A stretch of DNA of 32,000 nucleotides from Candidatus Heimdallarchaeota archaeon (GCA_030668875.1 DAOVER010000026.1:1-32000), one strand, 5' to 3'. Positions 2-23,834 are shown, counted from the stretch's first letter. Numbers and translations are program-made. Notes: a model not told the origin generated them from the letters alone.

Positions 2-352
2 ACCACCCAGATGTTCGTCACCATCCCCTTCCTGAAAATCATTGAGATCCTAAAGTACAAAGGAGCAGAACAAGGGATAAAGGTGGAGACCATTCCTGAA
101 CAATACACCTCCAAGAGCAGTTTCCTGGATAATGAATTCCCTAAAAAACGAAGAAATTACAAAGGGAGAAGAATCCACCGAGGGTTGTTCCGTTCTGCTG
201 CTGGTCGCTTGATCAATGCTGATGTTAATGCCGCATATAATATTCTGATAAAAAGCGATCCGAAAGCACTGCCTAAACGTAGTGTGAACGGGGTAGGAGG
301 ATACGTGATGTATCCACTAAGAGTGAGTATAGAATATCTTCGTTCTACATGA
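2..352 (+). CDS. tnpB: TnpB RNA-guided endonuclease, C-terminal part (5'-truncated by the window edge), zinc-finger-less type
   Basis: The frame is open from position 2 (TTQMFVTIPF...). Motifs: IPFxxxxxxLKYK; PEQYTSKSSFLD; GRRIHRGLFRS; RuvC-III INADVNAAYNIL; C-terminal GxxGxxxxPxRV. No Cys in the zinc-ribbon region. Confidence 0.9.
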   Translation, partial: TTQMFVTIPFLKIIEILKYKGAEQGIKVETIPEQYTSKSSFLDNEFPKKRRNYKGRRIHRGLFRSAAGRLINADVNAAYNILIKSDPKALPKRSVNGVGGYVMYPLRVSIEYLRST

Positions 353-460: not shown

Positions 461-1600
461 TCAATCTGATAATCTTATGAAAGTTTTTCTCAATTTTTCT
501 TCTTTTTCAATAATCTCCTTTCTACTATCTCTACCTTTTTCGAGAACTTCCCAGAATCTGTCTACATAGTCTGGATGAATACCTGTCAAAACACCCCTAA
601 TGGTGAGATAGGGTTCATCAATCGTGTTTAAAGCTATCCTAACGTCTCCTCTTTCAAAATTCTTGACTATCTTTCTGGTTTCGAAAGTAGATTGGAATGT
701 TGTAGGTGTTGTTATTGTAAGATATCCTTTTTTGGCTCTAGTTACATCTGCTGTTAAGCTAGAATTCTCATCTAGTTCATTGAAGAATAAATCTGAAAAT
801 CTTACATTTTGAGCTTGTTCAAGAGTATCAAATTCCTTATCCAAAGAGACTATAACTCCTAATCCATTTGCTTCTTTGGTGAATGATAAAAAGAAATCAT
901 TCAGACCTGCATTATACTCTTCATGATCAGTTTCTTGTAAAGCTGCAAGAATGGTTGTAGTCATAGTTATTGCTAACAACTCATTACTTTTTTCTAAAGC
1001 AACTGATGCTTCCTCTTTTTCAAAAAATGATAAAAGTTTCTCATTATCGAATAGTAATATAGGACTTTTAGGACCCTTAAAATCAAATCCTAGGAAATGG
1101 AGAGCTTTTGCAGCATTGTATTGAACTAAGGAAGGTTCACCTCTTTCCGGAACGATAAAAATGTTTGTTGGAGGGTCTCCTGTTATGTCAGCTAGAATCT
1201 TACTGGCTAACATTGATCCAGCACTACCTGTTCCTCCACCACTACCTACAATAAGATGTAGTGCTAGATTATCTTCGTTTCTACGATCGTCTCTTTTGTA
1301 AAAAACTACTTTCTCAAGCTTACCTCTAAATTCCATTTCTCTGGATTTGAGTTCTTTATAAACTGAACTTAAGTCGCTATTTGAAGAAGTTTTATTTTTA
1401 TCAAACCACCAATGCTCTTCATAATTCTTCATTTTTATTTGAAAATTGTCTGATTGATTAATTGCTAGAGATTTTACTGTGAGTCTACTCTCCTTCAAGT
1501 GATGAATAATTCTATCTCCAATTCTACAACCAGCATTTCCTATGCCAATAACAGCAATAGAAATTTTCTTTTTGAATAGCTTTCGTTTTAACCAAGACAT
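461..1600 (-). CDS. Tubulin/FtsZ-superfamily GTPase (CetZ/tubulin-like, not canonical FtsZ)
   Basis: T1 VIGIGNAGCRIGD; T4 GSGGGTGSAG (aa 119-128); T5 IVPERGEP..YNAAKAL; T6 LFDNEKL; T7 YNAGLNDF; C-terminal domain ending IRGVLTGI. N-terminus MSWLKRKLFKKK. Confidence 0.88.
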   Translation of the reverse strand: MSWLKRKLFKKKISIAVIGIGNAGCRIGDRIIHHLKESRLTVKSLAINQSDNFQIKMKNYEEHWWFDKNKTSSNSDLSSVYKELKSREMEFRGKLEKVVFYKRDDRRNEDNLALHLIVGSGGGTGSAGSMLASKILADITGDPPTNIFIVPERGEPSLVQYNAAKALHFLGFDFKGPKSPILLFDNEKLLSFFEKEEASVALEKSNELLAITMTTTILAALQETDHEEYNAGLNDFFLSFTKEANGLGVIVSLDKEFDTLEQAQNVRFSDLFFNELDENSSLTADVTRAKKGYLTITTPTTFQSTFETRKIVKNFERGDVRIALNTIDEPYLTIRGVLTGIHPDYVDRFWEVLEKGRDSRKEIIEKEEKLRKTFIRLSD

Positions 1601-2973
1601 TATGATCCATCTCCTGCAACTGCGGTAAAGATTCTTCTCATATTGAGTACCCAGATAATTATTGCCATAGAACTTTTTAGTAATTTACCAGTTGAAATTG
1701 GTACAGTTCTCATATTTGAAATATAGTTTCTTAACTGGAACATAGTTACATTTTCTTGTTTTGCATTATCAGCGTATTTTAGCTCAAATTCGACAACATT
1801 TGCAAATATATAATTGTCTAATTCGATTAAAGCTTTCATCTTAAATTTTACCATCTTAACTCTGAAACTATTCAGGGGAAGATATACTATCAAGAACATA
1901 ATAGCTGCAAGTAGAACAGATATAATAACAACCATAACGGTCCAAGGTTTATCTGCACCTATACCAGTAAAATCAACTAATATTGGAAACCCTAATCGAG
2001 GCATCTCACTAGCAAAACCATAGATAAGTAGATTAATTGTTCCCATTGCCATCGCTATCGTAGTAATAAGTGCAGAAAGTAAACCTGCAACAGGAATATT
2101 TTCTAATTGGCTTATAGATCTGCCAGGAGTATCTCCCAGAGCCCAGATTATGTCATAATTTTCTCTATTTAGAAGGGTTCCGTATTCATCAAGGTAAATC
2201 ACCAATCTTTCTTTTATCGTTTTTAGAACTTTAGAGTAGATTTTTGTATTGAGTATGAGATAATAGGTTGCAAGATAAAAAATATAGAACATCAATGGAC
2301 TAACTATACATGAGATAATCCCAAATGCTGAAGCAATAGAGGGGTTTGTTCCTGTAGTTTGAGGAATGGTTATTAATAGAATCGGCAGGTTAAGACCTAT
2401 TCCTGATAGAAGAGATAAAATAATCATAATTGGATTCTTTGGTAAATACCTATCATAGTATTTTGCATAATACTCCCGTACTGGTTTTTCTATCCATTCT
2501 ACACGCTTTTCTAGTGTTAAACCTAAATATCCATCGTGTGTGTATTTTAGATAGAATAAGGAAAATAGTACTCCTCCTATTAGCGGTATGAGCACAGAAA
2601 CTGTTAAATCTATCATTATTTTGCTCAGATCAAGTGGGGCTGCAAGCTCTTGGAATGGTACAATAACCATTATAATTGTTGGTATAAATAGCAGTACAAC
2701 GTAAAACCACAGTTTAATGTAATTCCACCACTTCAAAGCTAAAATGGAATTAAGCTTAACTTTGAAGAACGCAATTGGAACTAAGTAGAAATAGAGAAAA
2801 GGATTTTCTAGTGCTTTCAAATAGAGTGGGTTCTCTATCATTGCTGCTGTTCTTGGATACTTCTTATAGTGCTTTATAATTAAATCTTCGAACTCAAAAG
2901 AAGGTACCTCAATATCGTTTGGTTTTATCATTTTTGCTTTTATTGAAGTTGATTTAGAAGAACTAGTTTCCAT
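1600..2973 (-). CDS. Polytopic membrane protein of unknown function (about 7-8 hydrophobic segments)
   Basis: 457-aa ORF with multiple long hydrophobic stretches. Its TAA stop overlaps the ATG of the tubulin-like gene at 1600 (TAATG). Confidence 0.8.
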   Translation of the reverse strand: METSSSKSTSIKAKMIKPNDIEVPSFEFEDLIIKHYKKYPRTAAMIENPLYLKALENPFLYFYLVPIAFFKVKLNSILALKWWNYIKLWFYVVLLFIPTIIMVIVPFQELAAPLDLSKIMIDLTVSVLIPLIGGVLFSLFYLKYTHDGYLGLTLEKRVEWIEKPVREYYAKYYDRYLPKNPIMIILSLLSGIGLNLPILLITIPQTTGTNPSIASAFGIISCIVSPLMFYIFYLATYYLILNTKIYSKVLKTIKERLVIYLDEYGTLLNRENYDIIWALGDTPGRSISQLENIPVAGLLSALITTIAMAMGTINLLIYGFASEMPRLGFPILVDFTGIGADKPWTVMVVIISVLLAAIMFLIVYLPLNSFRVKMVKFKMKALIELDNYIFANVVEFELKYADNAKQENVTMFQLRNYISNMRTVPISTGKLLKSSMAIIIWVLNMRRIFTAVAGDGS

Positions 2974-3056
2974 GGCATTTTCATATACCGTTCGCTTGCT
3001 TTTAACAATTTCGCATTGTTACAAAACAAATTTATGTGAATACAGACTTATTAAAC

Positions 3057-4475
3057 ATGATTCAGTTGAAACTTTCAAAAATAGTCTGTACGATAGGGCC
3101 TTCTTCTAGTGATGAATCAACTCTCAAAGAGATGATTAACGCTGGTATGGATGTAGCTCGGTTGAACTTTTCTCATGGGACTCACCAATCACACGAGGAA
3201 GTGTTCAAGAAAATAAGGAATATCGATTCTCAAATCGCTATAGCATTTGATATAAGCGGCCCAAAAATAAGACTGGGAAAACTAGAAGAGAAATATCTTC
3301 TAGAAAAAGATCAGCAAGTTATACTGACTACAGATGATGTAGTTGGAACTAAAGATTTACTTCCAGTTAACTATCCTTCCTTGATAAAAGAAATTGAACA
3401 AGGATCTTATGTTTATATAAATGATGGTTTTGTGAAACTCAAAGTTATACAGAAAGAGAACAACAATCTAGTTTGTCAAGTCATTGATGGTGGTTATATA
3501 TCCTCTAGAAAAGGTGTTAATGTTCCTGATGCTAATCTTTCGATGAGGGTTCCTACAGAGAAAGATATAGTTGATATCAAAAAAGCATGCGAACTGGGTG
3601 CAGATTATCTGTTTATATCCTTTGTAAGAAGCTCTAATGATCTTGCAAAGGTAAGAAAAATTATTAACAAATGTTCTGATAAAACTATTGGATTAGTTTC
3701 AAAGATTGAGCACAAGGATGCAATAGAAAACATCAACGAAATAATTGCTGCAAGCGATGGTATAATGGTTGCAAGAGGTGATCTGGGAGTTGAAGTAGGC
3801 GCAGCTAAAGTTCCTGTCCTTCAGAAAAAAATAATCAGACTTGCTGTGAATATGGCTAAACCTGTAATTGTTGCTACACAGATGCTAGAATCTATGACTA
3901 AGGAGCCACTACCCACACGTGCTGAAGCGAGTGATGTGGCTCATGCTGTTTTTGACGGAGCTGATGCATTAATGTTATCTGGAGAAACAGCTACTGGGAG
4001 ACATCCTGTTACTGTTGTTAGAACTATGACAGAGATAATTCAAGAGACGGAAAATAATCTCTCCTTTTACACTTCTTTTGTTTCAGAATCGAACCTTCCT
4101 AAAGGAGGAGAAATAGGTCAAGCAGCTGTTAAACTTGGTCAAAAATTAGCTGTTGATGCCTTAGTGGCTATTACCCAGACAGGATACTCAGCAAGGATGA
4201 TATCAAGAAATAGAGTGCCTTTGCCTATTTATGCTGTTACTCCCGATGAATCAACGATGAGAAAGACCAATCTACTATGGGCGGTAAAATCTCTCTATCA
4301 TCCTCATAATGGTGATTTTAATCAGATTATATCCAGCACTATCAAGAAACTCCACTCAGAAAAAAACCTCCAACTCAATAGTGACGTTATAGTTGTTGCT
4401 GGGTCAGTTGTCGGACTTCCAGGAAGAATTAATACAATCCAAGTTCTAAATGTTAAAGAAACAATTGGGAGCTAG
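3057..4475 (+). CDS. pyk: Pyruvate kinase
   Basis: KIVCTIGP, ARLNFSHG, DISGPKIR, SKIE, GIMVARGDLGVE, VATQMLESM, PTRAEASDV, MLSGETATG. ATG at 3057 preferred; an in-frame GTG at 3036 is the alternative start. Confidence 0.98.
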   Translation: MIQLKLSKIVCTIGPSSSDESTLKEMINAGMDVARLNFSHGTHQSHEEVFKKIRNIDSQIAIAFDISGPKIRLGKLEEKYLLEKDQQVILTTDDVVGTKDLLPVNYPSLIKEIEQGSYVYINDGFVKLKVIQKENNNLVCQVIDGGYISSRKGVNVPDANLSMRVPTEKDIVDIKKACELGADYLFISFVRSSNDLAKVRKIINKCSDKTIGLVSKIEHKDAIENINEIIAASDGIMVARGDLGVEVGAAKVPVLQKKIIRLAVNMAKPVIVATQMLESMTKEPLPTRAEASDVAHAVFDGADALMLSGETATGRHPVTVVRTMTEIIQETENNLSFYTSFVSESNLPKGGEIGQAAVKLGQKLAVDALVAITQTGYSARMISRNRVPLPIYAVTPDESTMRKTNLLWAVKSLYHPHNGDFNQIISSTIKKLHSEKNLQLNSDVIVVAGSVVGLPGRINTIQVLNVKETIGS

Positions 4476-4556
4476 AGTGATTCTCCTCAACTATTCATTT
4501 TCAATTAAGTAGAAAACTCTTAAAAGGAAGGAAAAATATCAATATTTGAAGTAGAG

Positions 4557-5870
4557 ATGTCAAAGATAGGTTCGTTATTTAGAAAGAAAAAGCGAAAAGG
4601 AAAGGAAGAACAACCAAGTCTTTTCAACGGATTATATTCCTTTAATAATCAAAATATAGTTATGAACAGTCAAACCTCTGAAGAAATCTTACATGGGAGT
4701 TCAATATCTGATACTTTATTCTTAGAAACCGATACAAAATATTCTTCATCTGGTTTTATATTTGTTGGAAATAAAGAGATAAACCTCCTATCTCAAATGA
4801 AGTCACGTCTAGGAGAGAATTTTCCCCCATCTCTGATTTTTTCAGCTTTAGAAAAATATGAGAGTATAAATGAAAAACTTCCTTTTATTGAAATACCCGA
4901 TAAAAATCTCGAAGATCAAACATTTTCCCAAGGTAACCAATGGTATCTAACTAACAAAGACAGAATCGAAGATCGATTATCACGTTTAATCAGAGATGTT
5001 TCTATAGTATTTATTTTCGTTGAAAATAACGCGTTCTTGCTAGGGCTGATGCAACCTCTTCTCAAATTCTTTGAAAATACAAAAACTCAACCAGTACTTG
5101 TTCTTAACCTACCAGTTGATGAAGCTCCTATAAATAATACAGTAAGTATTTTAGTATTTATTCATCATCTCATGAAGAAGGAAGAAGCATTGAACATACC
5201 TTTCATCCTTCTAGAAGGAAATTTACTGCTAAAAGCAAATCCACATCTGAATTTAAGCGAGTTATCTTCAAAGTTTACTGACAGAGTTGCCAACATCTTC
5301 TGCGATATTATACTTGGAGCATTAACCTCATCAACTTTTTATCAAACAGATTTTAGTAATTTTGTTAGAATATTTGAGAACGCTAGAGGTCCATGTAAAT
5401 TAGTTTCACTAGATATATATGATAATAAACCGAACATATCAAGTCTAATAGGTCAAAAACATCTTTATGATTCAAGTTTTTCAGTGAAGAATAATGCAAC
5501 TAGAGGCTTTCTAGTAATTCAACCAGGTAAGAATGGTCTCAACACTAAAACATATAAAAACTTGAGAGACATTTACGCGAATCTTGATGTGAATATATCC
5601 ATACTTGAAAAGCGTCTTACTGGAGCAATTATAAGAGGAATTTTCACTTTTAATGAATTACCAAAATCTTTACTGAATAGATATGAAGAACTCTCTGAAC
5701 TCTATATTGAAATTCTAGATGATCAAAATAATATTAGTGAATATTTTGACTTAGCAAATCTTGAAGATTTATGGAACAAACAACGATACAGAATCAATAT
5801 TAGAGTAAAAGAAGAAAAAATAAAAGAAGAAAAAATAGAAGAAGAAAAAATAGAAGAAGAAGAAGTGTAA
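4557..5870 (+). CDS. Highly divergent tubulin/FtsZ-fold paralogue lacking the GGGTGS motif (probable pseudo-GTPase), with acidic C-terminal tail
   Basis: Colinear by-eye similarity to 461..1600: IILGAL/TILAAL, YQTDFSNF/YNAGLNDF, KLVSLD/VIVSLD, ATRGFLVI/AKKGYLTI, LDVNISI/GDVRIAL, IIRGIFT/TIRGVLT. T1 reads FVGNKEINL and the T4 position reads FVENNAFLLG. Confidence 0.7.
   Translation: MSKIGSLFRKKKRKGKEEQPSLFNGLYSFNNQNIVMNSQTSEEILHGSSISDTLFLETDTKYSSSGFIFVGNKEINLLSQMKSRLGENFPPSLIFSALEKYESINEKLPFIEIPDKNLEDQTFSQGNQWYLTNKDRIEDRLSRLIRDVSIVFIFVENNAFLLGLMQPLLKFFENTKTQPVLVLNLPVDEAPINNTVSILVFIHHLMKKEEALNIPFILLEGNLLLKANPHLNLSELSSKFTDRVANIFCDIILGALTSSTFYQTDFSNFVRIFENARGPCKLVSLDIYDNKPNISSLIGQKHLYDSSFSVKNNATRGFLVIQPGKNGLNTKTYKNLRDIYANLDVNISILEKRLTGAIIRGIFTFNELPKSLLNRYEELSELYIEILDDQNNISEYFDLANLEDLWNKQRYRINIRVKEEKIKEEKIEEEKIEEEEV
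5808..5867 (+). repeat. 15-bp tandem repeat x4 encoding KEEKI-KEEKI-EEEKI-EEEEV
   Basis: AAAGAAGAAAAAATA x2 (5808-5837), GAAGAAGAAAAAATA (5838-5852), GAAGAAGAAGAAGTG (5853-5867). Confidence 0.9.
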
Positions 5871-6095: not shown

Positions 6096-9000
6096 ATGAA
6101 AGGTAAATTCCGTACTATTATAGGTGCTTTGATTTTAACAATTACTGTAAGCTCATCAGTATCAATGGGTGTTTTGCTCCCTCTTCACTCCTCGAATCTA
6201 ATTACCCAAATTTATGTTGATATGAACAGTAATGCTTGTTTGACAGATAGTGATTTCTTGCCAAATGACGGGGTTGGTAATTTCTCTGAATGGATGTATA
6301 CAGGCTTAGAGACAAATGATTCAAATTTTGTTGATCAAGCAATTTTTGAATTCTTCAATGTTACAGATAGAGAGGGCTATCTCGACTATAATACGCCCAT
6401 ATCGTACTTCTTTGTACAAGGTGAACTAGCTTTTGACATTATTATTAACAAAACAGTTCTAGAGTACAATGTAGAAGATGATTATGTAGTTTATGCTTAT
6501 AGAAAACAATTTCTCTTCAATGAAGAAGACTCAACCTTAACTGGTGATGAGACCGTTTTGAATTTCAATTATCTTTGGCCATATTATATTGAATATTTTG
6601 GAAATGGCACAGAGTATGGTTTTCAAAGCTTTATTGCCTCAAGACTACTTCAAGAAGAATTACTAGGCTTTAATGCATCATTAGGTTATACTTTTAATGA
6701 ATTAGCTTATGCTGTTATGAACAGGACCTACGCTGAAGAAGAAGGCATACTTAATCTTGGCGTTTATTTGCCCCACAATTGGTTAAGTGTAAGACCTGCT
6801 TTTCCAGATCTTAACCTTGATAGCGCAACAAGTTACAAAATACTATATGATGCTACATACAATGGTCATGATTATTCTTTCCTAACAGGAGAAGCTGGTT
6901 CAGCTAAATACTTCCTTGACCTAGTAAGGGGTCTTGAATTTGAAGGACAATATGATTTAATTGTTGATGTTGAACAACTTCTAGCAGATATTTACGGAAT
7001 TGATACTCCACAAGAGCAAGAATACGCAAAATCCTTTGCAGCTTATATGAATTATTTACTTGGAAAGCCTTCACTTGATTGGCTTTATGAAAACAAAATA
7101 TCATATGCTTGTGAGCGAACTGCTATGGAATGGGTGTTAGGTATTGAAGATCCTCTTATGGGTGGAAAAAGATTCCCCTTAGTTTACAACCAAACCTTAT
7201 CAAGTTCAAGCATTGATTGGGATTTAGATATGTATTATGCTGAACAACTTGGGACAAATGATGTAGCTGATGTTGGTAAAATCATAGCAATCGCAAATAT
7301 TCCAGGATATTATTATGCTCAGTCTATGGAACTCTTCGTAGAAGATAACTTTGCATATGTAATAGAAGGTGGGACAGATATTAAAATTGTAAATATGACT
7401 GATCCCTTATTCAAAGCAATCGGTCAATTCGGAGACTTCATTATTGACGATGTTGAACCCAATCCTACTTATGATCCAATTGGTGTAGATGGTTATATTT
7501 CAAATCTTGTTGCAGTTGATTCATTTATTTATGCGGTTGAAGGTGAAGCTGGTTTAGAAATACTCAATGCAACTGATCCAAGTGCTATCTACGAACTTCA
7601 GCAATGGACTAATTTTGGAAATGCTGATATGCGCGATATTGATCACGCAGTTTTCGGGACATCTGTTCCATATGATGCTCTTATAATAGCAAATGGGCAA
7701 TATGGTCTAACCTTTGCAAGATTGCAAACTGATGACAAAATAGTAAGTACAACAATTGTTAATTTTGCAGGATTAAATGGTGATGCAACTTCAGTAGATG
7801 AATACAATGATTATGCTTTTGTAGGTTTAGGAACTGACGGAATTGATGTAGTTAGTATAGATGGTCTCGATGGTTCAATGGCACTTGAACATCACTATGA
7901 TTCAACCGATTTCGCTACCTTTAACAATATTCTAGATGTTAAAGCAGAAAATGGATTTCTATACGTTCTTGATGAAGTTGAGGGATTGTTAATATTTGAT
8001 ATAGAATTTGATGGTGCTTTAACTGAACAAGGTCAATTCGCATTCGGACCTACTGAAACTCCATACATTGATGTTCATATTGAAGGAACAAATGCTTATC
8101 TTACACAAGGAGATTATGGTCTTGTTGTAGTAGATATCTCTAACAAACTCAGTCCTTCTGAAACAGCTAGGTTTGACGGTGCTGAACACAAAGGTATCGC
8201 TTATGGTGTCTATGTTGATGGAAATGATGTTTATCTTTCAGATTATTCTCAAGGATTAGTTCATCTCAATTATGTTTCTAATACTTTCTCAATTGTTAAT
8301 AAAGATCAGTTACACACTTTCGTTGAAGCTTGGCAAAGTGAGAACAATATTCAATTGAATAATTGGGTTCTAAGTGATCCTGAATTCAAAGCTAATGAAA
8401 CATATGATTCATTTGGATTATACACATTTGTTGAAAGGGGTTACAGACAACAATGGACAGAGTATTTCCTTAGACCTTACATCTTCTCCTCATTAACAGA
8501 TACTGCTCTGTTTGTTGATAAAACCGTGTTGGTTTATACAGCTCAAGCTCAGATACCTTATCTCCAAAACGACGAAAACTCCCTATACTGGATGCATGCA
8601 GCCAACTTCATTAATGAAAGTTTCCAACATGCAGGAAGATGGAGTCTTCTTCATGGAGAAGAATTTTTAGCAACTGATTTTGCTATTACTCATTCCTTCC
8701 CTGGTTCGTTAAGAGATGAGTTCCACATGCAATTCATGTTAGTAGAACCTATCACAGGATCTATAATTGAACGCAAAGATAGAGTACAATATAACACAGA
8801 AGCCGTAGATTACAAGGAAACATATGATCTCCTCAATAAGACAACATTTGGATACGAGTGGGAAGTCTTAACGGTAAGCATTTACAATAATTTGCCTGTT
8901 GATCATATTTATAAGACATGGCATGTTACATATCCAGCTTTGCCTGGAGACATGGCAACACTCTTCTGGCATGAAGATATCTATAAAGCTACAAATAATT

Positions 9001-9170
9001 TCTATCATGAAGTAAGAGAAACCTTCTTAGATCTAATTGATAGTGCTGATGCTTTGAGAACATTGGGTGCTTTTGGTTCAATGTTTATAGTTGCTGCCGG
9101 TTTTGTTGTTGCATCTGTTGTGCTTAATATCATGAAGAAGAAGCACGATATTTCACTAATAAAAGAATAG
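6096..9170 (+). CDS. CD36/LIMP-2 (scavenger receptor class B)-like surface protein with an inserted LVIVD-repeat beta-propeller
   Basis: N- and C-terminal TM helices. CD36-like blocks: [20 protein letters not shown]...[53 protein letters not shown]. About seven LVIVD-type repeats (e.g. [22 protein letters not shown]). At least 12 N-x-S/T sequons. Confidence 0.72.
   Translation: [1024 protein letters not shown]
7317..8273 (+). repeat. About seven LVIVD-type repeats (predicted 7-bladed beta-propeller)
   Basis: [143 protein letters not shown]. Confidence 0.85.
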
Positions 9171-9356: not shown

Positions 9357-12300
9357 TTGTCTGATGATAAAAGAGCAAAGAAAATGTCAGCAGCTGCATT
9401 CTTTAATGATAATAAAGCAATAGCTGGCTTTGGAAATTCAATGCGGGCAGTATTTACGAGTATCAGAGAACTTGTAGAAAATGGTTTGGATGCTGCAGAA
9501 ATCAGGGGAGTCAACCCTGTTATTTCAATTTATTTACGCAAACTTTCTAGTAGAGAAATTAATGATTTGCTAGATGTAACCCAATATAAAAAGTTGGAAA
9601 AACATCTTGATTTTCTGCAATTAACCTGTAGAGATAATGGGGTTGGAGTTCCAAGCAATCAAATAGCGGATTTGTTTGGACGAGTATTAACAGGAACTAA
9701 ATATGGTGTAATTCAGACTCGTGGTCGATTTGGCCTCGGAGCAAAAATGTGTTTACTTCACTCTATGTCTTCAGTTGATTTACCAGCACGTATCAAGAGT
9801 CGTTACTTCATGGATGATATGACTCATGAACTTCATCTAATGATAGATCTTGAAAGAAATCAACCTATCGTCATGGAACAAAGAGAATATTTATCTGGAG
9901 ACCCAAATGCGTTAGAAGAACCAGGTGTTGAGATTAGCATAACCTTTACTGGCGCTTGGAGATTAGCAAAGAATAGTGTTAAGGAGTACTTCAGACAATT
10001 AGCCATTATTACTCCTTATGCAAGTTTTGACATAAAAGTTCCTGGAGATAAGGAAGGAGAATTTGAGGAATTACATTATGTGAATGTAGTAGATGATATG
10101 CCTCCTCCCCCCCAGCATATTAAAATTCATCCTTGGGGATGTGATATCACTCAATTCAAAGCAGAATTGTCTTCCACTAAAACTAAAAAAATGAAGGCAT
10201 TTCTTGCTGAACATTTTATGGGAGTAACGAATGAAATTGCTGAAGATTTCTTCCAGTTACTAGAAATAGACCCAAACAAATCACCTTCGAATATAACTTC
10301 GAAGGAAATACGAAGAATAGTACATGAAGGTTTTATTAAAGCTTATCAAGAAGCTAAGGATGTTAAGAGGAAACGAGACAGAATATTCCAATTTGATCCA
10401 CCACGAGGAGATGCCCTTTCTCCATTAGGTGCAGGGAGACTAAGGAAAGGTCTAGAGAAAGAATTGCAACCAAAATTTGTTGAAGCTGTTACAAGACCTC
10501 CTAAAGCTTACTCTGGTCATCCTTTTGCAATTGAAGCAACTATGGGTTATGGTGGGAGTGTAAATGAAGCTGCTCAAGCTAAAGGAGCTACCGTTAATGA
10601 TAATAAGATAATTTACAGGTATGCTAACAGAATACCACTGATTTTTGGAGCAGGAAATGATGTAATTACTCAAGTTGTTTCCTCTATCCGATGGAACGAC
10701 TATGGTCTAACTAGACAGTCTGATCCTCTTGCAATTGCAGTTTCATTAGTTAGTACAAAAATACCTTTCCCTGAAACAAGTAAAGAGTATATTTCTAATG
10801 TTCCTGAAATTGAAGAAGAAATAAGATTAGCTCTGATGCAACTAGGAAGGAGACTCAAAACCTTTTTGAGCAGAGCAAAACGAAGAAAAAGAGAACATGC
10901 AAGGTTATCCAGATTTGTTAAATCAGCACCAGTTATAATTGAAAACCTTACCCAAATTCTTGAAGATGAGAACCTTAAATTCACCGATTTCCGACTAGAA
11001 ACAGATCGAATTTCTGCATCTCTAGCTCATGGTTCTCCAAAGAAAGTTCGCTTGTATATGCCAATTGGAACGCGATTATTCGGAGCAAATGTTTGGTGTC
11101 CAAATAATATTCAAACAGCATTAAAAAATAATAATATTGAGTCAGTTTCAGAATTTCTACTTAAAGATTCAAAAGAATTAGCTGCGTTCCTTCAAATGAC
11201 AAAAGCTCAGATTTACGATATAAAGTTAAGAACTATCTCTGAATTAGACAGAGACAACTTGAGTCCAAGTTTTGATACAAAGACCTTAGTGTCTCGTCTT
11301 GTTGAACGAAGGTTCTCCTCTGAAGGTGAAAGACGGTACATTTCCTTGAAAGATGCATTATACAGACGATGGATACAAAATGTTTACCACTATTTAGCAA
11401 CAGATTTTGATAAACTTCGTGCTGTTTCAGGAATGCTAGAGAAGTTCTTCGAAACTAAGAAAGATGAATTACTTAATGATTACTTAGCTAAAGGAGCTAA
11501 GACAGGTAAAAACACTATATCAACTATAGACAAAGCTATTGCTACTTTCAATACTGTATCAGACTTAAAGAAAGAACAACTCTATCCTCCCTTTAAGTAT
11601 TTAAAATCTGAGACTGACAATGTTCTTGGAGAAGATTTGTCAATAGAAGAATTTCTTTACCAGACTGTACAACCCACATCTATTAACTATCATCCAGAAA
11701 TAACTCGAACGCTTATTGAGTATTTGAAAATTGTATTTACACAAATCACTAATAAATTCCCTGCATTTGCTGCAAGCAATATAACAAGAATGAAACCTGA
11801 TTGGACAGATGGTTATACAAAAAATGCCTTCCATAGAAGAAAGATAAAAACAGTTAATGATTTTCTGAACCACTCTACAGATGATCTTATTGATATAAAA
11901 GAACTGGAAAGAATATTGTATGAACAATACATAGAACTAATTGCTTCAAATTCAAAATCTGTTCCTTTGAAAGATTTCTCTTTTGTTGAAATTCAACAGT
12001 TAAAAGAGGATGAAACTCTTGTTATGAAAGATTTAGCTAAACACGGAATAAAGACTCTTGCTCAGTTCTTAAGCTGTACCTCTGAAAAAATATTACTAAA
12101 GAAGTTTAATACTTTAGGTACTCTTTTACTGAAGGAATCAAAGTTCAAATTATCTGCAAATTTACATGATACTAACAGGATTGTTGATCAATCTCACATC
12201 AAAATTATTCCTGAAAATGTTGAAACAGAATTTGTAAGAAATCAAATATTTACAACTTCTTCTTTTTTGGCGAAATCTTCTGTAATATTAAAGAAAATGG

Positions 12301-15300
12301 GAATGAAGAAGAAAGATATTGAGAGAGCAAAGAAGGAACTTGGTACTCCTTTACAGAATTGGGTCGATCATGATGAAATTCTCAAGAAATGTGGTATAGT
12401 AATCTTAGAAGAATTATTCTTTAATGATTCATCCGAATATAATCTTACACCTGAAGAAAAGAAAAAGTATGATGAAAACATCATTTTCCTCCGTTCTCCA
12501 CTGATTTTTGCTCTACCCGAATTAAGAAGTTCCTCCCATCTTCTTACTGAAATTGGTATTAACAATATTGGACGTTTCCTAATATGGTCTAATTCTGAAC
12601 TCTCAGATATCCTTTATCTATCTGTCAATGAGATAAAAGCTCTGAAGAAGAAAATTGTTTATCAAAAACAAATTCAATCTAGGGATGAACTAGGGAAAGG
12701 CTTAACACTTCTTTCAAGGCACTATCCTAATTTGGTGAAATATTTTGATAAAGAAGCACCATCGATTCAGGATTTATATTATGCTTATCAGTCAGAAAAT
12801 TTCTCGTTTAATACAGGTTTTTGGAAAAAACTATACAAACTGAGTGAACTATCTCAACAAGAAGCTATTGATTTAGTTCATCTTTATCCTAAGAACTTCA
12901 AAGATATTGATACATTAAAAGAAGCACTCCTACGTTTGAAATCAAGGAATGTTGAAACTATACGTCAATTCATGGAATTGCAACCAGAGATAATTGAATC
13001 AAAATTGAGTGTCTCAAAGGAAAGGAAAGTTGCTAGAGCTCTCTATGATACGATCCGATCAAGAAGATTTGAAGGAGAACAAGAATTACACAAACAAATA
13101 CTTCTTCTTAGTGAGTATGATGAATTTCAAAGAAATTTTGGTTCTCCTATTTCTAGGATTCCTGAACTTGCTCTGGAAGAATTAGAGAAATTTCGAAGTC
13201 ACGATATATTAGCTGTTCATCAGATATTCGATCATACAGTAGACGAAATAGCTACTGTGCTTGGTCGTGAAAAAGGATCAGTACAACAATTCATGAGCAG
13301 TTTTACCCTCTTACAGAAAGGAACACCATTCTTTGAAAAAGTAGATAGAAACAAATACAAATCACTAGTTTCATTTGAATTTGAGGATCTTGAACGTTTC
13401 TCTTCAATCGAGATTCAATCCCTTATTCAAGCTGGTTACGCTTCAGTTGACCAGATTTTTTATCTAACCCATCCACTTACTTTTTCCTCTTCCATTCTGA
13501 ACTGGAATGTTGTAGACAAATTTAGAAAATTATTACGATCACCTCTTACATTGGTTACATGGGAGAAAACAGTTAAGACAAAAACTTTTGATGAGACTGA
13601 GAATAAAGAAGTTGAAGTTGAGGACGTTCAAATTTCTACATTAACTACTTTACAATTAAATATTTTACAGAATCAAGGTATTTCAAGAATCATCGACCTT
13701 CTTGTAAGCAAACCAGAAACACTTGCAGAAGCTCTTAGCATCAGTATGGAAGAAGCCAAGATACTCCAGAAAGATATCAGAATTAGTGACACTGGAACTG
13801 ATTTAGCAGAATTGGACATCTTCAAATCAGAAATTGTTGATAAATTAGAGGAAAACAATGTTCTTACTCTTGAGGATTTATACTTCTCAACTTCGAAGAG
13901 CAAATGGAGAGTTAAAGAAGTTCCATGGGATATCATAGAATCATTCAAAAGTATTCTCAACCTTCCTCTTGCACATCTGTCAGATATGTTGGATGAAGAT
14001 ATTCTAACTGCTTTAGAGGATGCTAATGTTAAAACTCTGTTAGGATTTATGCTTACAACTCCTGAAAGTTTAATGAATAAAACAGGTATACCTGATGAAA
14101 GATTTGAAACAATAAAACGCGGTATGGATATTTCTGACATATTCAGTTACTTCTCACTTCCAAGTTATTTCCTCCCAGGTTTAACCTTCCAGCAAACCGA
14201 GATTCTAAAAGAAAATGGTCTTAAATCAGTCGCAGAATTTATAATCAGCTCTCCACAGAAAATTAACAAATTAATCAAAGTGCCTGCTAAGCAATTCCGA
14301 GAAATCACTGCAGATTTAACCACTCAAAGCCTACAAGCTCTGTATGATGAGAAAGGAATCTTTGCTTTTGAGACAAAGCTCTTCGATAAAATGGAACAAC
14401 GACTATTGGGAAGGGATTCAATATTTGAATTTGATAGGTTTCAAACCATCCAAGAAATGTATTATACACTGAATAGAGATTTCTATCAAAATAATCAAGA
14501 CCTATGGGAAAAGGTCTCTGCAATCCAAAAAGTATTATCACTTCCTCTGCACATATTCACCGAAATCTCTGAATATGCTCTTGAAATTATGAGCCAAAAT
14601 GGTATTAATTATGTTTATCAGCTACTCTTTATTCATGATTCAGATATAACTGATCCATTACTATTCAGAACTGTATCAACTTATTCTTCCAAAATAATCG
14701 AAATGAGAGCTTTTCATTACTTTTCCAAGCTTCCTGCTTTTGTTTATAATTCAAACTATTTCAAGAGAATATTGAAGGATACTGTTAACAAATCTCTCTC
14801 AGACGTTATTACTGATGAAAAGGTAATCAAAGATTTAGCTGCAAAAGATAAACAATATTTATACGAAAACTATAACTTAACTATCATTCGTTCAATTCTA
14901 GAACTACCACTTAGAATTACTCCTTACTTTACAAGAATAAAGAAAGTTAGAAGGGATGAATATAAAAATACGAAAATTGGTGATGTTTTCGATATTGATT
15001 TAGAAGAACATTCTGCTCTCTCCTCCTTTTACTCTAGATTATATGAAGAAAACTCTTTCAATAAATTAATCTCGCAATTAACTATCCCAATATCTTCAAT
15101 GGGATTACCCCGTGAACTTGCCTTAAAACTAAGCAAATCATCCATAGGTACATTAATAGATTTTTATTCCACTCCTGAGAAACAAGTTTCTGAAATCACT
15201 GGTTTTTCACAGAAGAACATTCGAGAAATAAAAGATGGATTAACATATTCAAACATTGTTTCTTTCCGAGTATCACAAGCTCATAAAATAAAACCTTCTT

Positions 15301-18300
15301 CCTTTGTATCAGAAAAGCAGATTTTCGACCTTATGGGGAAATCGATATCGGATATAGAATCTCTCTTTTACTCCGCAGAACATTTAGGAATCTCAAAATT
15401 ACTCCCTCTTGAAAATTATAAGAAAATCAAGGAAATTCTATCTGGGTCTATAAGATTTGTAGGATTTCTCTCATTTGATGAAATAAGAAGGTTAGAGTAT
15501 CATAATATTAATTCGATAATTGATTTTGCTCTACTCTCTAAAAAAGATCTCTTTACCATTACACAAAACCCCATTTACAAGGAGTTTCATGTTCTAGATT
15601 TGATTTCCTTTGATGAGTTATCAGAGAAAAGGATTCAAGCTGCTATACCTCTCTCATTGTGCCCCTCGATAGAAGAAGATTACTTAGAGAAAATAAAAGA
15701 AATTGGAATAAACTCCATTCAAGATTTTATCTCAAGAATGACAGAAATTAGAGAATCTCATCCTCATCTAGTAAAATTAGATATCTTCCGAGAAGTACAA
15801 ATGTATCTCTCTTCTGTAGCTTATATTGGACTTAATAATGAAAGTGTCCAGAAACTCATTTACTCAGGTGTTGGCGATATCTTATCTTTCATAACTGAAG
15901 ACCCTTCAACTATATCTCTGATTCTTGGAATAAGTGAAAAACAAGTTGATAAATATGTCAAACTTGCAGTTCCAAGTAATTTGGTTGAGAAAGTAGACAA
16001 CAAAGGTGTTCTTCTTACAGAATTTTCTGGATTATCTAGAGGAAGGAGAAATTCCTTACTAAAATCTGGAAAAGAAACAGTTCAAGATCTATTTAGTTCT
16101 CGTTATCAAGCTTATTCTCAATCTAACATCTCTGATGCGTTGATGAGCGAATTTATTGAAAGCTGTAATATGTCGTTATACAGAATTGAAGAAATTGAAC
16201 CAGGAATTAAGGCTAAGCTTTCAAAGAGTGGAATAACAAGAATTATTGATTTATTCTGCAGTACTGATGCAGGACTAAAGAAAGCTCTTGATGGTAAACT
16301 CCCCAAAGAGTTTAAGCAAATTAGAAAAGGTCATTTCACCTTAACAAAAGGAATTCCGCTAAGTTTGAATGAACCCCTGCAAGATATTATTAGAGAACTT
16401 AATATCGAACCTTCCAACAAAAAGATTGAGGACATGTTTGGTTTTGTACCTGAATTTTTGCTTCAATTTACAGAATCTGAAAGAATTGAGAAGGATAAGA
16501 ATTTAGCATTCCTAGAACAGATAGTAAGTTTCTTGAGTCTTAATATTCTATCATTACCGTCATTTGATACCACCACTAAACTGATTCTTTGGAATCGTGG
16601 TATCCGCCATATAATAGAACTATTATCCACGAATATGAACAAAATTGATGGTATCCCATATCAAGTAATCTCAGAGGTTCGATCTTACCAGAAAAATTTT
16701 AGTTTAAGTAGAAGCATGTCAGAGACATTTTCTCCATATATTGATGATGTACTCAATTTACCTGTTAAAAAGCAAATTAGATTCCAGAATTATGGTCTCA
16801 CTAGTGCTTTATTACTAGTTGATTTCATACCTCATCCCATATTCAGTTTCACTGCAAATGAGCAATCTATTCTCCGGATTATTTCAAATAACATGTTCAA
16901 ACCAATAACCTGGTTATCTTCAGATGTATCATTTAAGATTGAAGACATAAACTTACTAATTCAAAATAGAGCTATAAACATCCTTTCAGCTCTGCTTCTA
17001 TTATCTGATCAAGATGATACTAAAGCACTAGATACTTTATCTAATAAATACTATAAACCGATTTCTGCTTACCTCAATTCATCTGTCTTACAACTTAGTG
17101 CCCCTGAATGGGCTCTACAATTATCTAATACAAAGATAATAACAGATGCTAATAGCCTAAAATTACTAAAGAAAGAGAACATTTCTTATCTTGATGAATT
17201 CCTGACATTAGAAAGCAAGTTTTTGAATAACCCTAATCTTATAACCGATGTTTTACCAAAACTACTTTCACTAAAAAGCCTCCCCATATCCTCCATCAGT
17301 GACCTATCACCCAGTAATATTCAAAAATTAAAACGTTCAAGAATAAACAATGTTTATGAGTTTCTTGTAGTTCCTGCTCCATTGCTTTCAAATCTTCTAT
17401 CAATTTCTGTTGAGAATGTTAACGCAACTAAATCTTCAATTGATCTTTCTTCATTAGAAAAAACAGCAAAACTTACTGGTTTGGACCTAGAACTCTTCCC
17501 AGAACTTTCCCAAGATTCTAGAATAATTCTTCAAAGAAGAGGTTGTGTGTCTCTGAATCAAGCATCGAAGATGGATCTAGATCTCATTCCACTTCTTTCA
17601 GAAGATAAGTTACTTTTACAAAACCTTATCGCTATGTTATTTACTCCCACCACATTAATTGGAAAAATACTTAAATTAACAAAGAATGAAATTGATGAAT
17701 TACTAATTCGTGATGTATGTACATATGTAGACCTCTTAGAGCTTCCTCAAAAAACTTGGCCTGCAAAAATAAGGAAAAGTTTGTCAGATAAGGATTCTGA
17801 TCCAACATATCTAATTAAGAACTTACAAAACCTTGAGAAATTCGGAGTGCCTATAGAAAAGCTAGATTTAGCAAAAAGTGTTACTAAAGCGCTAGTAGAT
17901 GCAGGAATTGTAACAATTGATCATCTATACTATCTACCCATAACCTATGTAAGTGCAAGGAGTAAAGTTAAACAACCCATTCTTGAAGAAATTAAGAAGA
18001 AATTATCCTACAATATAAATTTCCTTCAAGATATCTCACATACAACTTTAGCTGGTTGTTATTCGAAAGATTCTTTTACGATAATTAGTTGCTTGATTTA
18101 CTGGAATAATTTATCTAAGGAAATAAGAACAGATTTGGAAGGTTCTCTAGACAGTATCAAACTAATTGAAGAAACAAGATTTATTGAACCACTGACTCCA
18201 ACGGAAACAAAGCTAGAATCTATTGGTATTCACTCGTTAAGATCATTCATTTTATCCCCACAGATTAAAAAAGAAACAGGTTTAGCAACCAAACTATTAC

Positions 18301-21300
18301 CATCTCTATTAGCTAATATTCGTTTCCTAAGTCTAGATCCAAAGCAGATTTCTCGCTTGAAGAAAACTGGTTTTGTTACAGTGGCAGATTTGCTTCTAAA
18401 TACTTCAAAAACAATATCTGTTAAATCCAAATTAGGTAAGAATGCAATTGATGAAATTCTCAATAACATAAAAATTGATAACTTAACCAGTTTGATTAAA
18501 TCGATGGAACAAGAGCATTTACATGATGCATTTTATCTGAGTACTAATGACAAAACATTCTTGAAATCAATAGGTGTTTATAGTTTAGCAGACTTAAACG
18601 AGTATACTGTTCTTGACTGGTTTGTTTCTAAACAAAAAATCCAAAAAATCAAAAAGAAAATTAACGCTTTGTTAGATACTAATATCCTTTACTATCCAGG
18701 AATTACATCTAAACAATATGCAGAAGTTGTTGAACAATACTTCATGAGGAATATATTTACGATCAAAGATCTAATGATATCAACAACAGTCGAGAAGACA
18801 AGTGATTTGATTGAATTTCTAACCATTTTCTCTACTAACAAACCTAAAATCCAATCCCAATATGTGACCTCTCTTTCATTCTTAAAAGGCATTGAAACCA
18901 AGGATTTGTTCGAGAAAAATGTTAAATTAGAAAAATCTGCAACAATTAATGATCTTATAGTAGCATTATACAGAAATTCTGAGGAATTGACCAAAAAGGG
19001 CGATGATATTATCAAACAGATTAACTACCCAATTTCTTTTTCATCAAAACTTAACCTCAATGAAGCAAATGATTTACGAAGCAAAAACATCCTTTCATAT
19101 GGAGATGTACTTACCAAACCAGTAGGTTATTGGGGGACTTTTGCTTCAGCGAAACTAAAGAAGAAGATTCTTGAAATTCTTAGTACAATTACATCACAAA
19201 ACATTGAAAATGAAGGTAAGAAGAGAGTTCAATTAAGTAGCATGAAAATATTCGATACAAACCTTAAGAAACAGCTTACATCAAATTATAAGACAATTGA
19301 TGAAGTTATTCATGCAATAAAAACAGAAGATACTAAAATCTTAAAACCATTGGAAAGGAAAATCACTAAAGTTTTGTCTACTCCTATCTCTCTTCTCAAA
19401 TTACCAAAAATCAAGATTAAATCATGGAAAAGACTTATATCGACTGTATCTACTTTAGAAGAATTCTACTTATTAACAGATCAAGAATTAGTCAAAATTC
19501 TATCCTCAAGCAAGGAAGAAATTGTTAAATTAAAGATCAATCTCGGGTCTGAAAATATCATCTTACCTCCAAGAATAAAGGAAAATAAGATCTTTACTAG
19601 TTCAGATGTTACAGAACTAAGTGCTAATGGGATTTCAAATTATGTACAGCTTTTTGAAGTGACAATAGAAATTTCTAAACTCAGCACTTCGTTAAAGGAT
19701 AAAATTGCCTTCTACAAGGAGTTTGATGTTAAGCAATTGGACGAGAACATAGAAGAAACCATACTCCTGAAAGATTTTGTATTTCTTGACTTTTATGCAG
19801 ATTCTCTGGCTCTAAGTAGAATACAAAAGGAATCTGTAAAGAATCTTTCCTCCTTGCTCTTGTCTCGTGGAACTCATCTATCAAAGATATTTGATATAGA
19901 TCTATTTGATATAGATCCCAATAAAGACAAAAGTAATCTGCTCAATACAACTATAGAGTATTTCCTCTTGATCGAGAAATATCGACCTAAGGTTTACACA
20001 AAAATTGTTGAATCTTTACAAGAAAAATACTCTTCACAATTAAACACTTTGCTTTCTTATCTTAATAGGTCACCAATTCTCCTTTCAGGACCAAATCTGT
20101 CAAATATTAACAAAATAGTTAAACTTCCTTATGAAAATATAAAGGACTTGCTCTTACTATCCAAGGAGAAACTTATTCGAGAAATAAATGATGTTGCTGT
20201 TCAAAGAAATGTTAGAGGATTGACATTATCTGTTTTGAAAGATCTTGATTCCAAGCTGACTTATATTCCAAAAGAGTTTTTGACAGCTTACGAGATAAAC
20301 CAATTAAAGAAAGAGAATATTTATTCCTTTGAAGAAGCTTTGGTTTTCAATAGAAAGTCAACTAGTAGAAAATCTAAGCCTTGGTTACTATCTGAAAAAG
20401 TAAGAAAAATATCCACTATTAACACGCTCTCACTTTCTTCTTATCTCCCCTCATCTAAAATACAAGAAAGACTACTGAAACTTAAAATAACCAATGTGTA
20501 TGAACTGGTTTATTATTGCCAGAATACAGAAAAAGAAGAAGACTTGAGTCTTTGCCAATCTGTTATTCAATCTGTAAGTTCTATTAATATTGAGGAAATT
20601 GAAACAAAAGAGAGAAGTAGATTTACTAAATTCTTTAATGACCCCGATATTCTTTCTTATTTACGAAGTCAAGATATCAGAACTTTTGGACCTTTAGTAC
20701 ATTATTTAGAACAGTTAGAGGATGAAGCTTTTACCCCTGAAATTGAGAAAATCTTATCCGTTATGCGTTTTCCAGTTTCTGTATTGTCAGATAATAAGAA
20801 ACTTGTGCTAAAACTAGAAGGTGAAGGTTATAACCAAGTAGTTAATCTTCTTATTCCTGCAAAAATAATCAATAGTTTGAAAAGCAATATTACCGAGAAT
20901 CAGAAGAAAGTTCTCACCTCTCTGATTAACATGCTTACTTATCAAGAAATATGTCGAATAATCACAAAAGATCATTATCCGATATCAAAACTTAGTTTAA
21001 TCGATGATATTTTGTTAAAAGAGTTAGTAAAGGCTGGATATGCATCAGTAGCTCATCTCAAATCAGCTGAAACAATTATTGCTGATACTAGCAAACTAAA
21101 TCTACAACAAATTTCTCGTATTGTAAGACTCTTTGATTCGTCTATTTATTACATGTCTGAAATGCTTAAAGACTATCCACAAAGTGCTTTTACTTTGTAC
21201 AATAAAGGAGTTAACACACTATGGGATATTTTCCTAGTTGGAAGTAAGGAAATTTCCAAGATTACAGGTATTTCTGTTCGACAGATAACTTCCTATTTAT

Positions 21301-23392: not shown

Positions 23393-23421
23393 AATGATGT
23401 ACCTATCAGGATAAAGATTAG

Positions 23422-23428
23422 AAAAAAA
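23422..23428 (-). terminator. Possible T7 terminator for alba
   Basis: A7 on the plus strand (T7 on the minus strand) about 25 nt downstream of the alba stop, in the convergent gap. Confidence 0.35.
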
Positions 23429-23453
23429 GTTGGCGATTAAGAATCGTTGATCT

Positions 23454-23834
23454 TTACTTTAGCAGGACAATCTCAATTGTGGATACTGTTTTTGGACCAT
23501 AACCTTCTACATCACTTGGCAATTCTTCAGATCCTATAACCACTTTATCAATTACTACGCTGTCTATCGGGTATTTTCTACGAGCTATTTCAGCAACATC
23601 AACTGCTTTCGAGATTTGTCTTCCACGGGCTTGAATTCCACACTTATTATGTTTATTGAGTATTGTAATTGCAACTAAAACATAGCTAATCGTTGGTTTC
23701 TTTCCGATGTAAATAATATGACTCCGCTCTCTGTACTCAGTTGTGGGTTTAGTGGCTTCTTTAGGCGTTTCTTCTTTCTTAGCTTCTTCCTTAGCTTCTT
23801 TCTTAGCTTCTTCCTTAGCTTCTTCTTTACTCAT
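23454..23834 (-). CDS. albA: DNA/RNA-binding protein Alba with a charged repetitive N-terminal extension
   Basis: IYIGKKP..SYV, ARGRQISKAVDVAE, VVIGSE, VSTIEIVL. Start moved to ATG 23834 because AGGTGA (23840-23845, minus strand) is an SD 5 nt upstream and contains the track's GTG start. Confidence 0.95.
   Translation of the reverse strand: MSKEEAKEEAKKEAKEEAKKEETPKEATKPTTEYRERSHIIYIGKKPTISYVLVAITILNKHNKCGIQARGRQISKAVDVAEIARRKYPIDSVVIDKVVIGSEELPSDVEGYGPKTVSTIEIVLLK
23778..23825 (-). repeat. 12-bp tandem repeat x4 encoding the EAKE/EAKK units of Alba
   Basis: Plus strand: CTTAGCTTCTTC, CTTAGCTTCTTT, CTTAGCTTCTTC, CTTAGCTTCTTC. Confidence 0.9.

Follow-up and report, generated by a model that had tools for sequence, protein, structure and literature searches.

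Positions 461 to 5,870 of a 32,000-nucleotide stretch of DNA from a Candidatus Heimdallarchaeota archaeon (GCA_030668875.1, DAOVER010000026.1:1-32000; here the window, contig C32 of a 3.23-Mb Asgard assembly that is 92% complete) encode two divergent paralogues of the tubulin/FtsZ superfamily, A and B, and a polytopic membrane protein, X. It is moderately probable that this region specifies a lineage-specific, membrane-associated tubulin-superfamily system, in which a GTPase (A), a paralogue of it (B) and a membrane protein (X) work together by a capping or heterodimer mechanism. Sequence, structural models and gene order are what point to this function. The open reading frame (ORF) of A (461-1600, minus strand) encodes 379 amino acids and that of B (4557-5870, plus strand) 437. 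The two are divergent and separated by 2956 nt, which hold the genes of X (1600-2973, minus strand, 457 amino acids) and of a pyruvate kinase (3036-4475, plus strand). An earlier reading of this DNA from its letters alone (the sequence-only reading) had given both ORFs these coordinates and strands and had described the genes as pointing apart at a distance of about 3 kb, which is how they lie.

Protein A, a predicted GTPase

A passes the Pfam Tubulin model (PF00091) with 36.9 bits against a cut-off of 33. Together with the Foldseek results on its model, this places it among TubZ/CetZ-like GTPases of the tubulin superfamily. Against the NCBIfam FtsZ model TIGR00065 it scores 19.7 bits, far below the cut-off of 295.2, and B gives no match there. 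The T1 loop (residues 19-28, G-I-G-N-A-G-C-R-I-G; 1517-1546, minus strand), with the motif G21-N-A-G-C-R-I-G28, aligns with GVGGAG of FtsZ and VGQAG of tubulin. The T4 signature (residues 119-128, G-S-G-G-G-T-G-S-A-G; 1217-1246, minus strand), with the motif G121-G-G-T-G-S126, aligns with SGGGTGSG of tubulin, and its glycines G122, G123 and G125 do not vary among A orthologues. The T3 position reads S-S-N, where FtsZ and tubulin have GAGN, and in the alignment this loop is degenerate across the whole clade. The T7/H8 segment, N230-A-G-L-N-D235 (896-913, minus strand), aligns with N-V-D-F-A-D of FtsZ. All four segments are as the sequence-only reading had described them.

The best sequence matches of A in the PDB are Haloferax CetZ proteins (E 1e-4 to 6e-5, N-terminal domain). 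Its AlphaFold2 (AF2) model has a predicted local distance difference test score (pLDDT) of 77.6 and a predicted template modelling score (pTM) of 0.81. Foldseek places CetZ structures 3zid and 4b45 first, with E values from 1e-15 (top 1.2e-15) to 2e-14 and TM scores up to 0.81. A opens with a near-invariant basic-hydrophobic peptide, M-S-W-L-K-R-K-L-F-K-K-K (1565-1600, minus strand). A short hydrophobic-plus-polybasic peptide of this kind also opens B (M-S-K-I-G-S-L-F-R-K-K-K-R-K; 4557-4604, plus strand), where it is kept despite the loss of the GTP motifs, as well as the A-like and B-like proteins of sister families. This shared peptide may be a handle for binding the membrane or X.

Protein B, a maintained paralogue with the tubulin/FtsZ fold

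B gave no match in Pfam, NCBIfam or PDB sequence searches. The claim that it aligns with A stands at the level of profiles and fails in pairwise BLASTP, where no relationship is seen (best E 4.1). With hhalign, a 25-sequence alignment of A and a 22-sequence alignment of B match with 96% probability and E 3.9e-9 over 301 columns (A 11-341, B 61-364), spanning both domains. A hidden Markov model (HMM) of the B family recovers A orthologues on the same contigs (E about 1e-11), and the A-like and B-like profiles of the sister families match with 99.9% probability and E 3.9e-31. Profile alignment, HMM matches and the tree described below concur with the proposed paralogy: B is a true remote paralogue of A.

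The AF2 model of B (pLDDT 76.9, pTM 0.81) retrieves Bacillus cereus TubZ (4ei7) as the top Foldseek match, with E 2.6e-14, followed by many FtsZ and CetZ structures with TM scores, normalised by target, of 0.65-0.77. The models of A and B match TubZ, CetZ and FtsZ with E values from 1e-15 to 1e-11 over 310-390 columns. In its predicted model, B adopts the two-domain tubulin/FtsZ fold, a point which the sequence-only reading had named as decisive. The GTP site is not retained. The columns equivalent to T1 (residues 69-78, F-V-G-N-K-E-I-N-L-L; 4761-4790, plus strand), aligned with T1 of A and G-I-G-G-A-G of B-like proteins, and to T4 (residues 155-164, V-E-N-N-A-F-L-L-G-L; 5019-5048, plus strand), aligned with S-G-G-G-T-G-S-A-G of A and G-S-G-G-T-G-V-G of B-like proteins, lack the motif glycines, and B is thus a predicted pseudo-GTPase. 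Its T7/H8 segment reads Q263-T-D-F-S-N268 (5343-5360, plus strand), with D265 invariant in the family and in predicted contact with A; these are the motif states originally reported for B.

B could in principle be a functionless, decaying relic of a duplicate, since every nucleotide-binding motif is lost and no Pfam family recognises it. Its ORF is, however, intact in five genera of the window's family and present in 25 of 29 other genomes of that family. The ratio of non-synonymous to synonymous substitution rates (dN/dS) is 0.16 (dS 0.45) and 0.30 (dS 0.16) in the two unsaturated pairs, and because of these values B is, on its coding sequence, judged to be under purifying selection and maintained. 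Conservation is moreover surface-specific. There are also 41 invariant columns; most of them fall within residues 243-369 or a conserved N-terminal extension of 45 residues, which is absent from A. Decay is therefore hardly credible as an explanation of B.

Complementary motif loss in the T7 loops is not supported

The sequence-only reading had seen complementary motif loss in the pair, A lacking the first Asp of T7 and B retaining it. This idea did not survive comparison across the families. Of the 54 A orthologues matched, 43 have D at position 232 and 10 have G; the window's protein belongs to this minority, most orthologues reading N/Y-A-D-L-N-D, so that the loss of the first Asp is a trait of the window's subclade and not of the A family. 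The second acid, D235, is kept in 53 of 54. The corresponding position 268 of B is N in 33 of 35 orthologues. Since B is without this second acid, it would be unable to supply what A supposedly misses. Complementary loss fails on both counts: A is not generally defective, and B is without the residue that matters most.

The importance of this position is known from tubulins. In the alignment, the column of B N268 and A D235 is that of FtsZ D212, the second Asp of N-V-D-F-A-D. In Asgard and eukaryotic tubulins it is Glu in the catalytic alpha-like and Lys in the non-catalytic beta-like proteins (PMC13371889); the Glu is Glu-254 of alpha-tubulin, to which catalysis is assigned. Two bona fide tubulins encoded by one genome of a sister family (G045) have one Lys and one Glu in this column. 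The more general division of roles proposed for the pair holds as judged from the motifs: A is predicted to bind GTP, and B, apparently nucleotide-dead, retains a T7 face.

Distribution and gene order of the A-X-B module

B forms a tiny family: a set of 1.84 billion proteins contains only 34 representative clusters of it. A scan of 399 genomes of the phylum found it in one Heimdallarchaeia order only, and in one doubtful genome of another family (G060, 8% contamination), in which the module lies on a 4-kb contig; this occurrence is a possible mis-binning and is not taken as a wider range. A and X have the same phyletic pattern. In the window's family, the Heimdallarchaeaceae (f1), A is present in 28, B in 25 and X in 28 of 29 other genomes. 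In the sister families (f2-f4), B is found in the one f2 genome, A, B and X in 3, 2 and 2 of the 3 f3 genomes, and in 12, 10 and 11 of the 12 f4 genomes, respectively.

In all 13 complete sister-family loci, B-like, X and A-like genes follow one another on one strand with overlaps or short gaps. In the Heimdallarchaeaceae, B is inverted and divergent from X-A. It lies directly adjacent (for example in G011, G019 and G029) or beyond an interposed pyruvate kinase gene (window, G016). A and B nevertheless share a contig, 1.5-6.2 kb apart, in 19 genomes of this family, so that the co-occurrence of the two, put forward earlier as a check on the pair, is found together with lasting linkage. X is directly upstream of A in every locus examined. 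Its stop codon overlaps the A start codon (T-A-A-T-G), which implies translational coupling. About 6-7 hydrophobic segments mark X as a polytopic membrane protein; it belongs to no Pfam or NCBIfam family, and the protein atlas gave only its own unnamed cluster. X proteins of the sister families are 25-26% identical to that of the window (E 8e-24 to 5e-31).

Two further genes accompany the module. A large LVIVD-repeat/CD36-like membrane protein (6096-9170, plus strand; Pfam LVIVD 30.3 bits, with a CD36 match below the cut-off) is encoded downstream of B. In the window's family, all 14 loci that extend sufficiently far have a gene of this type (about 1000 amino acids) immediately after B and on its strand (further examples are L017:1085-4015 and L034:4336-7326); in none of the sister-family loci fetched does one stand beside B-like. 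The pairing with B arose together with the loss of the GTP motifs of B. Across all families of the order, the pyruvate kinase gene (Pfam PK 366 bits, PK_C 89 bits) adjoins B or B-like at the majority of loci, in either orientation (for example L015:8221-9654 and L016:1382-2848). Pyruvate kinase is able to regenerate GTP from GDP. The adjacency may be plain synteny, and a functional link is only putative.

Phylogeny and history of the motifs

A tree of 59 sequences (LG+C20), built without CetZ, TubZ and artubulin and rooted on FtsZ of the order, groups A with A-like (support 94/92), B with B-like (95/95) and both groups together (94/94). This A/B clade is separated from FtsZ with support 100/99 and does not include the two bona fide G045 tubulins; long branches make its placement relative to tubulin unsafe. 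The stem leading to B measures 1.59 substitutions per site against 0.87 for A. Since A joins A-like and B joins B-like, the duplication predates the split of the families. These analyses show that a duplication in the ancestor of one Heimdallarchaeia order gave rise to A and B. The independence from FtsZ, CetZ and Asgard tubulins that had been claimed for the pair stands, by tree and Pfam scores, with respect to the single canonical FtsZ and the G045 tubulins.

The B-like proteins of the sister families read G-I-G-G-A-G at T1, G-S-G-G-T-G-V-G at T4, D-N at T6 and S-S-D-L-N-E at T7, and reach 25-41 bits against Pfam Tubulin. In the A-like proteins, G-D-x-G, G-x-G-x-T-G and D-N are preserved, as is the second T7 acid. 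B of the Heimdallarchaeaceae has neither T1 nor T4, the T6 Asn is gone, and E has given way to N as the second acid of T7; D265 is the only one of the B-like motif positions to remain. The motif loss in B is limited to this family. B of the sister families would thus be a GTPase with intact motifs; the sequence-only reading had overlooked it, along with X and the link to TubZ. The B-X-A operon, with both paralogues bearing GTP motifs and an acidic T7, is taken here as the older state.

Predicted A-B contact and surface conservation

The single pairing modelled was A with B, GTP and Mg. It obtained an interface score (ipSAE) of 0.84, the best of three controls reaching 0.00; 58 of 80 solved complexes attain the mark against which the score is read, as do 2 of 110 mismatched pairs. 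Contacts agree between runs to at least 89%, and the pLDDT of the partners is at least 85. The modelled interface is the canonical longitudinal one, with the T7 face of B on the nucleotide face of A. It involves T1 residues 22-23, residues 52-54 and 70-74, T5 residues 152-160, residues 190-202 and the C-terminal helix of A, and T7/H8 residues 258-268 and C-terminal domain residues 312-346 and 365-379 of B. The multimer prediction proposed in the sequence-only reading thus gives the arrangement expected there, and motifs and model agree with the roles suggested for the two proteins, A as the probable GTP binder and B as the putative T7 surface.

Conservation, a line of evidence separate from the model, varies with the surface. 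The predicted contact residues of B are more conserved than the rest of the protein (0.70 vs 0.58, p 9e-4), and its top face, equivalent to the nucleotide face of A, is less so (0.43 vs 0.61, p 1e-4). In A, the equivalents of the T7 face are conserved above the remainder (0.81 vs 0.74, p 0.03). This pattern leans, without deciding, toward A-A polymerisation with a terminal or capping B over a strictly alternating polymer; the lean toward a cap follows from the poor conservation of the top face of B.

A possible mechanism and its rivals

In the explanation preferred here, B was inverted out of the operon in the Heimdallarchaeaceae and lost its GTP motifs there, keeping, under purifying selection, a strongly conserved face formed by T7 and the C-terminal domain. 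A would bind GTP and form head-to-tail polymers by means of its T7 loop, which is intact (D235). B, without GTP binding of its own, would dock through its T7 face on the side of A that carries GTP and offer no catalytic carboxylate. Such a non-hydrolysing contact might cap or stabilise that end of an A filament, or produce a stable A-GTP/B heterodimer, by analogy with the Lys of beta-tubulin over the non-exchangeable GTP of alpha-tubulin. X would tether the assembly to the membrane, possibly with the help of the basic-hydrophobic N-terminal peptides of A and B.

Several points weigh against this explanation. It is gene order that suggests X as the membrane anchor. The departure of B from the X-A operon and its pairing with the LVIVD/CD36-like gene may mean that B has changed its job. 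The degenerate T3 loop may signify that the nucleotide cycle of A is unusual as well. The score of the A-B model may reflect recall of the solved longitudinal contacts of tubulin, FtsZ and TubZ, the run used its own alignments and ligands, unlike the calibration, and the predicted model taken alone is compatible with a cap, a heterodimer and an alternating polymer. Finally, the predicted contact residues of A are somewhat less conserved than its remainder (0.66 vs 0.76).

The sequence-only reading had proposed an A/B heteropolymer or a filament-plus-cap system. Taken as an alternating heteropolymer with complementary T7 loops, its model would have the first Asp of B complete the GTP site of A and turn on hydrolysis. 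The placement of the T7 of B on the GTP face of A, the invariance of D265 and the Gly at the first-Asp position of the window's A would suit it. The first Asp is nevertheless present in most A orthologues, the second acid of B, in the column of the second FtsZ Asp and of the alpha/beta Glu/Lys distinction (PMC13371889), is gone, and the top face of B, on which such a polymer would depend, is less conserved than any other part of B; these observations make the alternating polymer quite unlikely. A somewhat stronger competitor, though still an unlikely one, is that A and X alone form a membrane-bound homopolymer and that B has been recruited elsewhere, off A, with the LVIVD/CD36-like surface protein. 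The position of B outside the B-X-A operon in the window's family, the gene that follows it in every informative family locus and in none of the sister-family loci fetched, the long B stem and the N-terminal extension absent from A all speak for this. The close linkage of B to A in 19 genomes, the fact that the polymerisation (T7) face of B is its best-conserved surface and the score of the A-B model against its controls speak for a partnership with A.

The filaments might also move DNA instead of shaping membrane, as a chromosomally domesticated TubZ-type segregation system (type III partition), given that the nearest solved sequence relative is plasmid TubZ from B. cereus, which is also the top Foldseek match of B. 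At no locus, however, was a small DNA-binding adaptor gene seen, in inspections that included no dedicated TubR profile run. The neighbours are instead X, pyruvate kinase, an HD-domain protein and the LVIVD/CD36-like protein, the site is fixed in the chromosome across an order and is not that of a plasmid or virus, and a polytopic membrane partner invariably lies between or beside the two genes. Segregation of DNA is accordingly considered very unlikely.

A bolder form of the preferred explanation, quite doubtful at present, would be an obligate A-GTP/B heterodimer or capped filament with an unhydrolysed, structural GTP under the T7 of B, anchored by X and linked through B to the CD36/LVIVD-like surface protein. 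If true, it would mean a linkage from cytoskeleton to cell surface; a division of labour like that of tubulins would have arisen independently in the order of archaea nearest to eukaryotes, and the sister families would preserve its active-active form as an evolutionary intermediate. Few known archaea are more closely related to eukaryotes than the Heimdallarchaeia, and this module, a second tubulin-superfamily pair in the order, bears on the origin of tubulin pairs with divided catalytic roles. Two stages can be compared: both paralogues look active in the sister families, and in the Heimdallarchaeaceae one has apparently lost GTP binding and the catalytic T7 residue but keeps its polymerisation face. 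The path from a homologous co-polymer to a catalytic/non-catalytic pair thereby becomes directly testable with natural proteins.

Other features of the window

The 3' end of a TnpB/Cas12f-like gene, cut by the window start (2-352, plus strand; Pfam Cas12f1-like TNB domain, E 2.8e-11), sits just downstream of A. Elsewhere in the window (9357-23834), the notes of the sequence-only reading mention a giant Top6B extended by a long stretch of repeats, a Top6A carrying a ubiquitin-like domain, and Alba.

Comparison with known systems

No published description of the A-X-B module was found, and none for OLS32748 or for Heimdallarchaeaceae with FtsZ. The 2025-2026 papers on Asgard tubulin and FtsZ deal with bona fide tubulins and FtsZ1/2 only. 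Nor was a dedicated integral membrane partner found described in the literature consulted on FtsZ, CetZ, TubZ and tubulin; X, as such a partner, would point to a new way of attaching these filaments to membranes.

FtsZ with SepF resembles the module as a tubulin-superfamily GTPase with a dedicated membrane tether, a role presumed for X. The presumed tether differs: it is an integral membrane protein of 6-7 helices and not SepF. A itself was rejected as an FtsZ, given its 19.7 bits against a cut-off of 295, the separate FtsZ clade (100/99) and the FtsZ that the genome already has. Each genome of the order encodes one canonical FtsZ (for example at G000:C95, L001:1306-2469). That of the window's genome scores 147.8 bits, a SepF is also present there, and this FtsZ and A are the only Pfam Tubulin matches of that genome. 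A scan of the order's FtsZ against contigs returned, among the best 80 loci, mostly bacterial FtsZ with 38-46% identity. The FtsZl-1/FtsZl-2 proteins (Makarova and Koonin 2010) were rejected as counterparts, their gene context being different (vWA protein, GTPase, OmpA).

CetZ (PDB 3zid, 4b45, 4b46) is both the best fold match and the best PDB sequence match of A, and one A orthologue, OLS32748.1, is labelled 'CetZ' in GenBank. The differences are an identity of 16-19%, in a comparison made without CetZ in the tree, the degenerate T3 of A and other partners (X and a dead paralogue). In four archaeal genomes looked at for CetZ, only FtsZ-like matches and two weak others were seen. The 'CetZ-like' Asg.Tub group is likewise composed of divergent Asgard tubulin-superfamily paralogues with an unstable position between CetZ and tubulin and with uncharacterised neighbours (PMC9871819). 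Its members, as given there, have 454-464 amino acids and come from LC-3, B3-JM-08 and Thorarchaeales (Santana-Molina et al. 2023, PMC9871819). They were rejected as a prior description of A, being different proteins, and OLS32748.1 does not occur in those supplementary files that were examined (PMC9871819).

Among solved proteins, plasmid TubZ (4ei7) comes closest in profile comparisons of sequence, and CetZ has the fold closest to that of A. In PDB profile searches, A-like matches 4ei7 with E 2.3e-16 over both domains (32-344 vs 40-370) and B-like with 5.9e-11. In the same searches CetZ is found at about 1e-9 and FtsZ, matched in its N-terminal domain only, at about 1e-8; the match of the window's own A family to TubZ is weaker (E 0.002, N-terminal domain only). 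The archaeal proteins share with TubZ (PDB 4ei7, 2xka, 3v3t) the signature F-D-A...(D/E)-(L/F)...T-P-G around T7 and, in the A-B model, a long C-terminal helix predicted to reach the neighbouring subunit. They differ in being chromosomal and in fixed synteny, with no TubR-like adaptor or centromere seen (no dedicated TubR profile was run), in comprising two paralogues, one of them nucleotide-dead, together with a polytopic membrane protein, and in an identity of only about 15-18%. For the reasons of location, synteny, adaptor and membrane protein, a TubZRC system was rejected.

The remaining comparison is with alpha/beta-tubulin, BtubA/B and AtubA/B (Heim-alpha/beta). Alongside its module and FtsZ, the G045 genome of a sister family carries on contig C52 two tandem bona fide tubulin genes (L049:3098-4399 and 4383-5681), which are probably the published AtubA/B-type pair. 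A and B are not the Asgard alpha/beta-tubulins described in 2026. Unlike the G045 tubulins, which score 196.9 and 191 bits against Pfam Tubulin, A scores 36.9 and B not at all, and the proteins fall in separate clades; both tubulins bind GTP and B is without GTP motifs; and the archaeal module includes a membrane-protein partner. What A and B share with the tubulin heterodimers is a duplicated pair with a division at T7, where A has D235 and B has N268, the position of Lys in beta-like proteins (PMC13371889), and, in the predicted A-B complex, a non-catalytic T7 lying over the GTP of its partner.

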